This document shows, piece by piece, positions 1-8,074 of a DNA stretch of 64,000 nucleotides. The DNA is taken from NCBI RefSeq assembly GCF_044647545.1, contig NZ_CP172818.1, one strand, 5' to 3'. How positions within the stretch are numbered: position 1 is the first letter of the stretch; each line of letters opens with the position of its first letter. The DNA comes from Escherichia coli. GTDB lineage: Bacteria > Pseudomonadota > Gammaproteobacteria > Enterobacterales > Enterobacteriaceae. Both the position numbers and the translations under genes were made by a program. Below the pieces are notes generated by a model that saw only the letters and a program-made list of their open reading frames with translations, was not told the origin of the DNA and searched no databases.

Positions 1-1358
1 GAAGTAAACGCGGCGTGCCCCGGGGTGTCCAGGAAGGTGATCATGCCGTTTTCAGTTTCAACGTGGTATGCACCAATGTGCTGGGTAATGCCGCCCGCTT
101 CGCCAGAGGCCACTTTCGTTGAACGAATGTAGTCCAGCAGAGAGGTTTTACCGTGGTCAACGTGACCCATGATGGTCACAACCGGCGCGCGCGGTTCAGC
201 CGCTGCACCCGTGTCACGGTCGCTCATTACCGCTTCTTCCAGCTCGTTTTCACGACGCAGAATAACTTTGTGGCCCATCTCTTCAGCAACCAGCTGTGCG
301 GTTTCCTGATCGATAACCTGGTTGATGGTTGCCATTGCGCCCAGTTTCATCATCGCTTTGATGACCTGAGAGCCTTTAACCGCCATCTTGTTCGCCAGTT
401 CGCCAACGGTGATGGTTTCACCGATCACAACGTCACGGTTAACGGCCTGAGCAGGCTTCTGGAAGCCTTGCTGCAGCGAAGAACCTTTACGTTTTCCGCC
501 TTTACCGCCACGTACTGCTGCGCGTGCTTCTTCACGATCAGCTTTTGATTCAGCGTGTTTGTTGCCTTTCTTCGGACGCGCAGCTTTCGCGTTACGACCA
601 CGGCCACGGCCGCCTTCGACTTCACGATCGCTTTCGTCTTCTGCCTGGCGAGCATGTTGAGAAGTAGTGACGTGATAATCGCTGGAATCTTCAGTCGGTT
701 CCGCGTTATCAGTCCATTTGTTTTCTTCCGCCATACGACGTGCTTCTTCAGCAACGCGACGTGCTTCTTCTTCGAGTTTACGACGCGCTTCTTCTTCGGC
801 TTTACGCTTGAGCTCTGCAGCTTCCTGCTCACGGCGGGCTTTTTCAGCCTGGGCGTTTTTAGTCATATCGTCTTGTTGATTGCTCACTTTGTCTTTTTCC
901 GCAGCTTCACGTTTCGCTTGTTCAGCAGCTTCGCGCTTAGCTTGTTCTGCGGCCTCACGTTCAGCTTTTTGTTGCGCCTCACATTTGGCCGATTCTTCTG
1001 CCTCACGACGGGCTTGCTCTTCCGCTTCACGCTGCGCTTGCTCTTCCGCAGCAAGGCGTTCAGCCTCTTGCGGATCGCGTTTCACAAAGGTGCGTTTCTT
1101 GCGGACTTCGATTTGTACCGATTTGCTTTTTCCACCGGTACCAGGAATGTTAAGGGTGCTGCGTGTTTTACGTTGCAGCGTCAATTTGTCCGGGCCTGAA
1201 TTTTTCTGATTCAGGTGGTCAATCAAAGTCTGTTTCTCTTGTGCAGACACAGAGTCGTCAGCAGACTTCCGGATACCTGCATCAGCAAATTGCTGTACCA
1301 GGCGTTCCACGGAGGTCTGTCGCTCTGCGGCCAGCGTTTTAATCGTTACATCTGTCAT
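1..1358 (-). CDS. infB: Translation initiation factor IF-2, N-terminal ~452 codons; gene continues beyond window start
   Basis: Minus-strand frame from ATG at 1356-1358 translates [16 protein letters not shown]..., recognised as the IF2 N-terminus; missing from ORF track because it runs off the window edge; low-complexity A/E/R/K repeat region. Confidence 0.9.
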
Positions 1359-1382
1359 GCTGTTCCTTCCTGCTACAGTTTA

Positions 1383-2870
<1,488 letters not shown>

Positions 2871-2897
2871 CGCGGGCTTTTCACCTCATCCAGACTA

Positions 2898-3350
2898 TTA
2901 AAAGTGGGGAACCAGGTTCGCCTTCTGGATATTACTCAGCGCGAACACTTCATCTTTACCTTCGACGGTAACTGTGATCATTTCACCGTCTACCGCTTTG
3001 ATAACGCCCTGCCATTTACGACGGTTTTGTACCGCCATGCGGAGAACCAGAGTCACCTCTTCTCCGACGAAACGGGCGTAGTGTTCAGCCGTGAACAGTG
3101 GGCGATCGAGACCCGGTGAGGAGACTTCCAGGTTATAAGCAACGGTGATGGGATCTTCAACATCCAGCACAGCACTTACCTGGTGGCTCACATCAGCACA
3201 ATCATCAACATTGATGCCATCTTCACTATCAATATAGATGCGCAGTGTGGATGTGCGACCGCGAATAAATTCGATGCCAACCAGTTCAAAACCCAGGGCC
3301 TCAACTGGCGCAGTAATCATCTCTGTTAATTTTTGCTCTAATGTGGACAA
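2898..3350 (-). CDS. rimP: Ribosome maturation factor RimP
   Basis: ORF contains ...[27 protein letters not shown]...; start placed at an in-frame TTG to give the 150-aa form; located between metY and nusA. Confidence 0.85.
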
Positions 3351-3367
3351 GCCCACCCCCAAGACAT

Positions 3368-3432
3368 AAAAAAAGGGCCTAAAGCCCAGTTATTCTGTAG
3401 TCAGATAACAAAAAACCCCGATAAATCGGGGC
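3368..3432 (-). terminator. Two tandem hairpin plus U-run structures between metY and rimP (intra-operon terminators/attenuator)
   Basis: Minus-strand RNA: ccccgau-uu-aucgggg followed by uuuuuug (3410-3432), and a weaker gggc...gccc hairpin followed by U7 (3368-3387). Confidence 0.5.
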
Positions 3433-3556
3433 TTTATATAACTGAACCCTATAACCGCAACTGCGGTCTGGAGCACTTTCCAGAAGGATTTTTTCAAATC
3501 CCACTACGAAGGCCGAAGTCTTCACAGTATATTTGAAAAAGGACTCTAAGGGAAAG

Positions 3557-3633
<77 letters not shown>

Positions 3634-3965
3634 CCTGAAACGTGGCAAATTCTACTCGTTTTGGGTAAAAAATGCAAATACTGCTGGGATTTGGTGTACC
3701 GAGACGGGACGTAAAATCTGCAGGCATTATAGTGATCCATGCCACATTTTGTCAACGTTTATTGCTAATCACGTGAATGAATATCCAGTTCACTTTCATT
3801 TGTTGAATACTTTTGCCTTCTCCTGCTCTCCCTTAAGCGCATTATTTTACAAAAAACACACTAAACTCTTCCTGTCTCCGATAAAAGATGATTAAATGAA
3901 AACTCATTTATTTTGCATAAAAATTCAGTGAGAGCGGAAATCTAGGCTCATCATCAGTTAATTAA

Positions 3966-5324
<1,359 letters not shown>

Positions 5325-5331
5325 TTCGACA

Positions 5332-6957
5332 TCAACCCTGCCCTTCAGGGGTGGGGTTACCTTGCTTATCCTCAGTAAACTCCTTTCTTAGCATCACAAA
5401 ATCGAAAACATCATGGTTTGCATCTACAACCCGTGAGTCTCCTTTATAGTGTGCAATCACTTCCTCAAGCGTTTGCGGCTGTTCCGGCTTTGTTACCCCC
5501 ATCCACGCATTAATAAGGTAATTATTGTACGCAGTGGAAAAGATATCGTTTTCCGTTGTGCGATCCACGCCATCCCCAAGAACGGGGCTATACCAGATAA
5601 ACATCGGGACATGATATGCCTGCTGGCTGGCCTCCCTGCCTCCATGAAAATAGACGTTCTTCTTCGTAGGGTCGCGTTCCAGGCCGTGGTCGGCAAAATA
5701 CATGACCGAGGCGCGGCGATCTTTTAATAATTCAAAAACCTGACCTAGCAAACTATCTGTGTAATGAATGGAGTTGTCATAGCAGGCATCCTGATCGTCC
5801 TGCGGTTGAAACACGGCGCTGGATTGCGGATAGGCGCTACAAGCCGGTTCATGGCTTCCATTTAAATGAAGAACAATCAGTTTCTTTTGCTGCGTCTTTT
5901 GCTGTAACGCTTGCGATAAATGCGGCAACAACAATTCATCAAATCCTCTGACATAGACTGTTTCCATGGCGCGCATGGCGATACTGGTAACTGCTGTACC
6001 ATTCTGCCGAAAAGCGGATTGCGAGCTTAGCCAGAAAGTCTGAAATCCTGCTTGATTAGCCATATTAATAATGTTGTCCGGGTAATTATGAATGTCATGA
6101 CTCAAAACAGAATCAGCAGTTAAAGAAAGGGGAACCGACAGCGCAGTGTAAGGTGCACCGCTTATTGCTTGATTAAACAGTTTGATCTGTTTTCTTTGTG
6201 CTTCGACTTGCGGTGTCGTAGAGCGTGTGTATCCATACAAAGACATATTGTCGACACGTACAGACTCCCCCACAATCAACACGTAGGTATCAATACCTGT
6301 ATCCCTGACTGATAATTGAAAATACGGCACCGTGTTTGCAATTGAGAGTAATCTTTGATGCTCTTTCGCTGCTAAAGCAAAATAATTGAGATTGAAAAAC
6401 GGTGTATAGGTAGCAAATCGCGACGCTAGTATATATGGACTGAACGCTTTTTTATTTTTTGCATCTTTATAAGCAAATTGACAAGCGGAAAATAAACTGC
6501 CCGAAATGACAATCAGCAATAATATTCCTGTCACTTTTTTTGTCGGCAAGGAAACATCATATTTTATTATTACTGCCAAAAAAAGAAGGGATAAAAAAGC
6601 AAAAGCACATAGATAAGGGATATACATCCCCAGCATTTTCACAACTTCATCCGGATCACTCTGCAGCACACTAATCGCAAATCCATCATTGAAAGTTGTA
6701 CCAAAGGTACACCATGAATAGAGGCTAATACTCATGTCTGCCGCAGTCAGTAACACAAATGGTGCGGCAACAAGCAGGCGAAGCGGAAGGGATGATATAC
6801 GTTTAACAACCAGGATGGTCAGAACGAAAAACAGCAATCGCTGAACCATATGCGCTCCGGAAGAGGCGACTAAGTTCGTAATACCAAAAACAATAACACA
6901 AAGATACAACAACCAATGAGATTTAAAACTTCTAACAAATTTGTTGAATACTGTCAT
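5332..6957 (-). CDS. yhbX: Inner-membrane sulfatase-family (phosphoethanolamine transferase-like) protein YhbX
   Basis: ORF of 552 aa; start moved to internal Met (MTVFNKF...) for the ~541-aa form; N-terminal TM helices then sulfatase-like domain; convergent with argG, 7-bp gap. Confidence 0.75.
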   Translation of the reverse strand: MTVFNKFVRSFKSHWLLYLCVIVFGITNLVASSGAHMVQRLLFFVLTILVVKRISSLPLRLLVAAPFVLLTAADMSISLYSWCTFGTTFNDGFAISVLQSDPDEVVKMLGMYIPYLCAFAFLSLLFLAVIIKYDVSLPTKKVTGILLLIVISGSLFSACQFAYKDAKNKKAFSPYILASRFATYTPFFNLNYFALAAKEHQRLLSIANTVPYFQLSVRDTGIDTYVLIVGESVRVDNMSLYGYTRSTTPQVEAQRKQIKLFNQAISGAPYTALSVPLSLTADSVLSHDIHNYPDNIINMANQAGFQTFWLSSQSAFRQNGTAVTSIAMRAMETVYVRGFDELLLPHLSQALQQKTQQKKLIVLHLNGSHEPACSAYPQSSAVFQPQDDQDACYDNSIHYTDSLLGQVFELLKDRRASVMYFADHGLERDPTKKNVYFHGGREASQQAYHVPMFIWYSPVLGDGVDRTTENDIFSTAYNNYLINAWMGVTKPEQPQTLEEVIAHYKGDSRVVDANHDVFDFVMLRKEFTEDKQGNPTPEGQG

Positions 6958-7371
6958 CCAGAAATCCAAGTTCACAACCAATATAAACAATTATCAACAA
7001 TGTTCAATTTTATATCAGACATGTTTTTCAACTCTGATCCATATCAGACCGAAACACTGTTAGTTTTTTCTTTTTAAATGATGCGGCCATTGTTCTCAGT
7101 AATTAAATAACATTATCAATGCGTCTCTAAACATTACGCAGAACGTAGCCATCAGTAGTTATACTGACAGGAGCAGGATGGTTTATCGAGAAGTAAACAT
7201 ATCCGTATTCGTACCGGAACTGGAGTTGACACAATAAAGTGCCAATTATGTCAGCAGAAGGGAAAAGTTTATAACTAAGGCGTACCGGCACCATCGTTTC
7301 AAGGTACCAGCTACGAGTAAAGCAACTGGACGAGATACAGATACCTGACAACCATTCCTCAGACCAGGACC

Positions 7372-7402
7372 AAAACGAAAAGAGACGCTTTTCAGCGTCT
7401 CT
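7372..7402 (-). terminator. Rho-independent terminator downstream of leuU (end of secG-leuU transcript)
   Basis: Minus-strand hairpin agagacgc-ugaaaa-gcgucucu followed by a U-rich run, immediately 3' of the tRNA. Confidence 0.5.
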
Positions 7403-7413
7403 TTTCTGGAATT

Positions 7414-7500
7414 TGGTACCGAGGACGGGACTTGAACCCGTAAGCCCTATTGGGCACTACCACCTCAAGGTAGCGTGTCTACCAATTCCACCACCTCGGC
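7414..7500 (-). tRNA. leuU: tRNA-Leu, 87 nt with long variable arm
   Basis: Reverse complement reads GCCGAGGTGGTGGAATTGGTAGACACGCTACCTTGAGGTGGTAGTGCCCAATAGGGCTTACGGGTTCAAGTCCCGTCCTCGGTACCA. Confidence 0.9.
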
Positions 7501-7514
7501 ACGGATACTACTTT

Positions 7515-7847
7515 TTAGTTCGGGATATCGCTGGTCGGCTTAGCCGGAGCAGCTGGCTGAGTTTGTTCGGTTTTCGCCGGCGCACTCAGGTTTTCCCATT
7601 CGCTACCTTTATTGGTTTTATTGCTATTGATGTTACCCAGCACCAGACTGATGATGAAGAATAACGTTGCCAGCAGCGCCGTCATGCGGGTCATGAAGTT
7701 ACCAGAACCACTTGAACCAAACAGCGTAGCGGAAGCGCCTGCTCCGAAGGAGGCTCCCATATCAGCGCCTTTACCTTGCTGCAGCATGATCAGACCAACA
7801 AGGCCAATTGCCACAATAAGGAAAACTACTAAAAGAGCTTCGTACAT
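7515..7847 (-). CDS. secG: Protein-export membrane protein SecG
   Basis: ORF contains MYEALLVVFLIVAIGLVGLIMLQQGKGADMGASFGAGASATLFG...; start moved to the Met giving the 110-aa protein; directly upstream of leuU. Confidence 0.9.
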   Translation of the reverse strand: MYEALLVVFLIVAIGLVGLIMLQQGKGADMGASFGAGASATLFGSSGSGNFMTRMTALLATLFFIISLVLGNINSNKTNKGSEWENLSAPAKTEQTQPAAPAKPTSDIPN

Positions 7848-8074
7848 AATCAACCTGTTCCTTGCGGAGTTGCCGCGTACCAATGCTTCAACCAATAAAG
7901 CGGGAGTTTTTAATCTTTCCCACTGAAGCGGGTGTGAATACTAACCAAAGCGAATGACCTTCGCAAGGGCAATTTTATCGCATTGTATCAACTGCGGAAA
8001 AAAACAGCAAAACCGATGTATTCGCCGAGAAAAAAGGCGACAATCGCCGCCTTTTTAGCCAGTTATCTAACGCT

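Follow-up and report, generated by a model that had tools for sequence, protein, structure and literature searches.

Two hairpins, each followed by a run of U, stand on the minus strand of the Escherichia coli chromosome between the initiator tRNA gene metY and the genes rimP, nusA and infB, and the question is whether they merely close the tRNA transcript or govern the expression of the genes downstream. We analysed this locus in a window of 64 kb, that is, the whole stretch of 64,000 nucleotides, to which all positions below refer unless stated otherwise. The annotated order on the minus strand is secG, tRNA-Leu, yhbX, argG (on the other strand), tRNA-Met, rimP, nusA and infB; translation from the TTG at 3350 gave the known RimP sequence, with nusA and infB at lower coordinates. 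In an alignment, the sequence from upstream of metY to the start of rimP was identical to that of K-12 MG1655 except for one base in the tRNA, and K-12 coordinates can therefore be converted for this stretch (MG1655 coordinate = window coordinate + 3,314,656). The exceptional base is a G at tRNA position 46 (window 3588), which is an A in K-12 (GAAGGTCG against GAAGATCG), so that the metY product of this strain is the major form, tRNA-fMet1, which has been described for E. coli B strains. When 601 bases around the hairpins were used as a query, matches over at least 80% of its length were found in 5420 complete E. coli genomes, the best with 100% identity. The features of the locus are listed in Table 1.

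Table 1 Features of the metY-rimP interval; identity is that of the Enterobacteriaceae loci (80 species) to the window
Feature	Position	Strand	Sequence, score or basis	Identity (%)
metY, initiator tRNA-Met (CAU)	3557..3633	-	ARAGORN; Rfam tRNA 61.4 bits	
tRNA trailer, long irregular hairpin	3476..3556	-	-23.7 kcal/mol, z -2.7; contains RNase III site and promoter P2	79
H0, small hairpin	3454..3467	-	ACCGC-AGUU-GCGGU; just upstream of the conserved leader, outside the Rfam consensus structure	
Leader	3351..3450			95.7
Invariant box	3441..3450	-	AGGGUUCAGU here, AGGGUCCAGU in most other genera; capitals in the Rfam consensus	99.4
t1, upstream intrinsic terminator	3410..3435	-	AAAGCCCCGA-UUUA-UCGGGGUUUU; stem 3435..3412, U6 at 3415..3410	98.7
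Spacer between t1 and t2	3388..3409	-	GUUAUCUGACUACAGAAUAACU; GUUAU after the U tract and ACU before t2 conserved, middle variable	94
t2, downstream terminator, general rimP-leader motif	3368..3387	-	GGGCU-UUA-GGCCC at 3387..3375, U7 at 3374..3368	
rimP ribosome-binding region and start codon	3348..3360	-	GGGGGUGGGC and UUG (3350..3348); annotated start	97
rimP coding sequence, first protein gene under the leader	2898..3350	-	annotation and translation; start TTG at 3350	
rimP four-fold degenerate sites				59.5

The preliminary description of this DNA had placed two hairpin plus U-run structures on the minus strand in the metY-rimP interval, and we located both of them there, with coordinates agreeing within three bases. 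Each is a G+C-rich stem-loop followed by a U tract, as in an intrinsic terminator. The stem of the upstream hairpin, t1, has 10 pairs, 5 of them G-C, and a UUUA loop. The stem of the downstream hairpin, t2, has 4 to 5 bp with four G-C pairs (GGGC/GCCC), which is the lower limit for an intrinsic terminator stem; the additional pair in E. coli is a non-conserved U-G, and the loop varies from 3 to 5 nt across leaders. RNA folding, suggested in the preliminary description as a check, bore out t1 (-15.0 kcal/mol against a shuffle mean of -4.75, z = -4.3, equalled by 0/200 shuffles) and not t2 on its own (-7.4 kcal/mol, z = -1.4, equalled by 23/200 shuffles). Thus t1 clearly differs from random sequence, and t2 by itself does not. 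The 86-nt stretch with both hairpins folded at -27.3 kcal/mol (z = -4.55), a value that none of 200 shuffles equalled. The patterns CCCCG-N3-8-CGGGGTTTTT for t1 and GGGC-N3-8-GCCCTTTTT for t2 each occurred once in the 64-kb window, where 0.01 occurrences were expected for either; a generic terminator scan of positions 1..8000 gave no overall enrichment (13 against 8.9 ± 2.9 expected). Since t2 is weak alone but has an invariant stem and is part of the Rfam family match described below, its credibility is comparative. We rejected chance hairpins as an explanation, for t1 because of the shuffles and for both structures because of the pattern expectation, the Rfam match and the conservation.

The stretch 3368..3468 of the minus strand matched the Rfam family RF01770 ('Gammaproteobacteria rimP leader') over its full length (model positions 1-102 of 102) with 102 bits and an E value of 5.8e-18, the curated gathering threshold being 47 bits. 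The consensus structure of RF01770 consists of exactly the t1 and t2 hairpins. The window sequence has the tandem CCCg...cGGG and then GGGc...gCCC hairpins of the family with a U run after each, directly upstream of rimP-nusA-infB, and the U tract of t2 ends 17 nt before the rimP TTG. With the same locus, the same two hairpins and a full-length match, the E. coli leader is a member of the family, whose consensus structure differs from the description given here in containing neither the covarying hairpin H0 nor a long-range pairing of the AGGGUYCAG box. When 2800..4200 was scanned against Rfam with permissive settings, RF01770, the tRNA and sub-threshold matches at chance level were all that came up; as no aptamer family was matched in this interval, we dropped a riboswitch, a T-box and a ribosomal-protein leader as candidates. 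One of the sub-threshold matches, to the Salmonella small RNA family STnc430 (plus strand, 3290-3443; score 26.6 bits, threshold 47, E = 0.12), is probably noise from the symmetric t1 hairpin.

RF01770 was defined by Naville and Gautheret 2010 (PMC2965389), who described a weak, near-universal terminator that precedes rimP and whose GGGc...gCCC stem is conserved, and, in some Gammaproteobacteria, a second terminator farther upstream with the inverse CCCg...cGGG motif. These authors considered the rimP leader the most widespread attenuator and NusA its likely effector, and the E. coli leader sequence found here is present in SuppData1 of their paper. The experimental literature on E. coli names the same structures: Brandi et al. 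(PMC6511841) list, among the terminators of the operon, 'two (t1 and t2) upstream of rimP', with reference to Ishii 1984, Plumbridge and Springer 1983 and Regnier and Grunberg-Manago 1989, which we quote as cited there. The window represents the same organism with the same spacer as K-12, and only the metY allele differs. In speaking of tandem terminators with partial termination in this operon, the preliminary description was in agreement with both PMC6511841 and RF01770. We conclude, with a probability of about 0.92, that the two hairpins are t1 and t2, the tandem Rho-independent terminators of the metY-rimP-nusA-infB leader, and together make up the element RF01770, for which a role in NusA feedback is proposed. 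Since an Rfam family and the experimental literature name the same structures, the element is already known, and the finding is a correct rediscovery of a catalogued feature.

Conservation was followed in 80 Enterobacteriaceae loci, obtained by a search for RimP relatives with one genome per species. All 80 had a metY-type tRNA end upstream and the t2 motif at a fixed distance from rimP; the strict t1 pattern was found in 75 of them, and the remaining five had a C-to-U change that keeps the pair. Ten further genera reached through RimP homologues (Yersinia, Serratia, Pectobacterium, Edwardsiella, Xenorhabdus, Photorhabdus, Tatumella, Sodalis, Dickeya and Erwinia) gave RF01770 matches with 84 to 103 bits; each lies directly in front of rimP, with an initiator tRNA on its upstream side. 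Both hairpins were thus present in 80/80 Enterobacteriaceae loci and in 10/10 loci of other Enterobacterales. Purifying selection on the leader is very strong (Table 1), and the aligned sequences indicate that it acts on the whole 100 nt and not on the stems alone. Among 70 distinct leaders (71-sequence alignment), the t1 stem was 99.4% paired, and its changes were all one-sided and pair-preserving. In t2, the 4-bp GGGC/GCCC stem was invariant in 70/70 distinct orthologous leaders, the fifth (U-G) pair was not conserved, and the energy of this hairpin stayed between -5.7 and -7.9 kcal/mol in 89 distinct leaders. An invariant stem of 4 bp with a fifth pair that is not kept suggests that t2 is a deliberately minimal hairpin.

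The comparison also brought out two features of the surroundings. In 8/10 of the other Enterobacterales loci (L083, L084, L086-L089, L091 and L092, from Yersinia, Serratia, Edwardsiella, Xenorhabdus, Photorhabdus, Tatumella, Dickeya and Erwinia), the rimP leader directly follows secG, tRNA-Leu and the initiator tRNA, without the yhbX and argG genes that stand between leuU and metY in E. coli. In one metagenome contig (L133, PPYE01236725.1), t1, t2 and rimP are intact, but the place of the box, H0 and the tRNA is taken by unrelated DNA whose end reads TTGACA...TATACT; a rearrangement, a chimeric assembly or an engineered construct could account for this.

The position of the promoters bears on whether the hairpins serve the tRNA or the protein genes. 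According to PMC6511841, the operon contains RNase III sites, the promoters P-1 and P0 upstream of metY and the promoter P2 downstream of it. We assigned the -10 element of P2 by sequence reading to TATACT at 3531..3526, with a start near A3519. The primer used by Adams et al. for cloning the rimP 5' UTR begins with ACTTCGG at window 3519, and TATACT lies 7 bases upstream of it, which fits P2. Upstream of metY on the minus strand, we noted a perfect sigma-70 promoter (TTGACA-18-TATAAT, 12 of 12) at 3755..3726, which fits P-1, and a promoter-like TTTGCA-18-TAGAAT at 3678..3649, which fits P0. Because P2 fires between metY and t1, the hairpins also attenuate transcripts that carry no tRNA. An RNase III site at MG1655 3318176, corresponding to window 3520, falls in the upper part of the trailer hairpin (Regnier and Grunberg-Manago 1989, as cited in PMC5371410), and the terminators lie 122 to 189 nt downstream of the tRNA 3' end. 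Consequently, the preliminary description was right about partial termination and not about tRNA 3'-end formation being coupled to read-through, as the tRNA is released by RNase III upstream and not by termination.

The view that the hairpins merely end the metY transcription unit and exert no regulation on the downstream genes is suggested by their location behind a tRNA gene and by t1, which is a textbook terminator. However, P2 feeds rimP-nusA-infB through both hairpins, a t2-type motif stands upstream of rimP in many bacteria that have no tRNA there, and constraint extends over the whole 100-nt leader rather than the stems only. Moreover, the operon transcripts are raised in mutants with reduced NusA-dependent termination (PMC6511841). 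We therefore regard a role restricted to the end of metY as highly improbable.

Published in vivo data on 3' ends gave a divided answer when consulted for transcript ends at the hairpins, another check that the preliminary description had named. The curated Term-seq lists of Adams et al. 2021 (PMC7815308) contain no 3' end at t1 or t2 and none at 33180xx, but the Rho-region table of the same study contains position 3318065 on the minus strand, i.e. window 3409, one base past the U run of t1 (Rho score 2.97, p = 1e-38). Without bicyclomycin, coverage there was 4269 upstream against 196 downstream, and with the drug it was 3527 against 481; since the 800-nt upstream counting window includes metY, the drop from 4269 to 196 is not a clean measure of termination efficiency. 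The entry in this table could mean that termination in the leader is mainly Rho-dependent and that the hairpins mark a processed or trimmed 3' end instead of the site of release. Yet 3318065 coincides with the end of a canonical hairpin and its U6, bicyclomycin may act indirectly and its effect was counted over a window that includes metY, and a lacZ fusion with the rimP 5' UTR and ORF was lower, not higher, in the rhoR66S mutant (PMC7815308). Taken together, these data make mainly Rho-dependent release improbable. In the supplements of SMRT-Cappable-seq we found no entry for rimP, metY or 33180, and the Northern blots of PMC6511841 gave no support for cold-shock anti-termination at this place.

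NusA-mediated feedback on the operon, absent from the preliminary description, is the main role proposed for the hairpins. Indeed, t1 and t2 are terminators in the 5' leader of an operon that encodes NusA, as would be the case for a NusA-autoregulated attenuator. Transcription termination by the hairpins and feedback of NusA on the operon have been reported in the literature. NusA represses its own operon, with the leader terminator as the favoured site of action (PMC2965389), and papers citing Plumbridge 1985, Nakamura 1985 and Bylund 2011 credit them with NusA-raised termination or negative feedback in E. coli. In Bacillus subtilis, NusA-stimulated leader termination autoregulates nusA (Mondal et al. 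2016, as cited in PMC12288461), and a similar NusA proposal has been made for Streptococcus agalactiae, which has a like arrangement, and for E. coli (PMC4448216). In Salmonella, transposon insertions in the rimP leader are not tolerated.

In the mechanism that we propose on this basis, transcripts from P-1, P0 or P2 would all pass t1 and t2 before rimP, nusA and infB. As a strong canonical terminator, t1 would remove most of them constitutively. The deliberately weak t2 hairpin, with four conserved G-C pairs and U7, would be of the type whose efficiency depends on NusA, and we infer that it is the NusA-sensitive step in E. coli. At high NusA levels, a larger fraction of the polymerases would stop in the leader and nusA expression would be lower, which would constitute a negative feedback. 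The RNase III cut upstream of t1 frees the tRNA, leaving either the mRNA or the terminated leader.

Comparison with other leaders shows which elements are shared. In the B. subtilis ylxS(rimP)-nusA operon, too, the 5' leader contains a weak intrinsic terminator, and the GGGc...gCCC motif is shared (PMC2965389), but this leader has a single terminator and lacks the upstream tRNA, t1 and the AGGGUYCAG box. The leader-peptide attenuators of trp, his and pheST also terminate transcription prematurely in the 5' leader and may form alternative pairings; in contrast to them, the rimP leader has no conserved leader ORF, and the proposed signal is a protein factor and not ribosome stalling. A leader peptide was rejected: only mechanical ORFs (35 and 48 aa, with TTG and GTG starts) cross the leader, and no frame is kept across species because of single-base indels around H0 and the t2 loop.

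The terminated leader RNA itself, running over roughly 110 to 150 nt from the 5' end made by P2 or RNase III to t1 or t2, might in addition be a trans-acting small RNA bound by ProQ. The rimP leader is among the attenuator-derived, ProQ-associated short RNAs of Salmonella (PMC5391140), beyond which we found nothing in the literature on ProQ and rimP, and conservation of the leader is greater than two stems require. On the other hand, this conservation fits cis-acting folding as well, the RNA has no known target, and ProQ favours structured 3' ends, so that its binding alone does not show function. We consider a function in trans unlikely.

A further conserved element of the leader is the box upstream of t1 (segment GGGUUCAG), which is also present in the leaders of Vibrio, Photobacterium, Idiomarina and Pseudoalteromonas (PMC2965389 SuppData1). 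The box, AGGGUYCAGU (3450..3441), is complementary to ACUGGGCU (3390..3383), that is, to the 5' arm of t2 with its flank. Instead of two independent terminators, the leader may accordingly be a single structural switch, in which a helix between the box and ACUGGGCU would enclose t1, block t2 and act as an anti-terminator. Polymerases that escape t1 would then pass t2, except where NusA or some other factor shifts the fold back; NusA, another factor or competing pairing may select the fold, and H0 may serve as a folding insulator or pause element. Such a switch would refine the feedback by NusA at t1 and t2 and would not replace it.

This pairing was assessed with distant leaders from a scan of metagenome contigs and with those of Vibrio, Photobacterium, Idiomarina and Pseudoalteromonas from PMC2965389. 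The 8-bp core was complementary in essentially all of 54 distinct combinations of box and partner, and the adjacent pair changed from U-A to A-U in 5 of them; clade-specific extensions also pair (UUAU/AUAA in Enterobacteriaceae, UGUUC/GAACA in Idiomarina, UUAC/GUAA in leader L109). However, both strands of the core are invariant, so no compensatory change is seen within the 8 bp, and pairs beyond 9 bp are kept in <55% of the sequences. The covariation score of the box helix was 0.136, compared with 0.091 ± 0.008 for shuffled and at most 0.098 for slid partners, only a moderate excess, and the duplex energy of native partners was -13.2 compared with -12.6 ± 0.2 for permuted ones (0/2000 permutations as low), but related sequences may beat shuffles without any structure.

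Folding calculations pointed in both directions. The minimum-energy structure of the E. coli leader in RNAfold has a 14-bp box helix (3451..3438 with 3393..3380) in place of t2, and the 3' strand of this helix is transcribed earlier than the 3' arm of t2. In ensemble folding, by contrast, t2 was favoured in 51/89 leaders and the alternative helix in 33/89, and RNAalifold paired the box with the rimP start region (a second UGGGCUU) and kept t2. In three Vibrio leaders the box, as we read them, finds a better pairing partner in a GCUUGG segment before t2, and PMC2965389 assigns the anti-terminator to t1, not to t2. No other explanation covers the 99.4% conservation of the box. Given the moderate covariation, the mixed ensemble folding and the RNAalifold alternative, we put forward the masking of t2 by the box as a hypothesis and not as a result, and regard it as possible, though on balance doubtful. 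The pairing was found neither in the Rfam structure nor in the text of PMC2965389, the two sources compared, and it may already have been described in the older primary literature on E. coli.

Several observations concern other partners of the box. UGGGCUU is present twice on the minus strand, at 3382-3388 in the 5' arm of t2 and at 3349-3355 at the end of the ribosome-binding region and the rimP UUG; pairing of the box with the second copy, as in RNAalifold, would hide the rimP start codon. This second copy is absent in Vibrio-like leaders and in leader L109. In the leaders of V. cholerae, V. parahaemolyticus and V. vulnificus, the box sequence CCAGCA(A/G) also pairs with (U/C)UGCUUGG, which lies 10 to 15 nt before t2, and between two of the species an A-U pair is exchanged for G-C; given this second pairing, the Vibrio box may have two alternative partners.

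Of the remaining structures, H0 showed compensatory variation: 5/5 pairs varied on both sides among the 70 distinct leaders (closing pair A-U in 36 and G-C in 24), and the hairpin was missing in one Erwinia genome (L092). An extension of the t1 stem by UCAG (3445..3442) with CUGA (3404..3401) is predicted in E. coli; one of its pairs changed from U-A to C-G in 6 sequences, the extension was unpaired in 6 others, and we retained it solely as a structure that might compete with the long-range helix. Three further candidates were set aside. A hairpin in the middle of the spacer (GUUAUCUG/CAGAAUAAC) was dropped since its inner pairs are broken in several genera. A weak anti-terminator of t1, GGGUU/AGCCC, appeared only transiently in length-series folds and had no comparative support. 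In a boxA/nut-like reading of GUGCUCCAG and H0, the match to boxA is limited to GCUC, in a segment with 70 to 90% conservation.

To summarize, the hairpins between metY and rimP re-identify a feature of the nusA-infB operon known from textbooks and recorded in Rfam; the finding adds nothing new in this respect and serves as a positive control, two real terminators having been placed within three bases from raw sequence. The leader gates three core factors, RimP, NusA and IF2, and is among the most widespread bacterial attenuators. The pairing of the box with t2, if true, would provide a concrete and testable mechanism for the NusA feedback in E. coli, where the sources consulted only propose or cite one.
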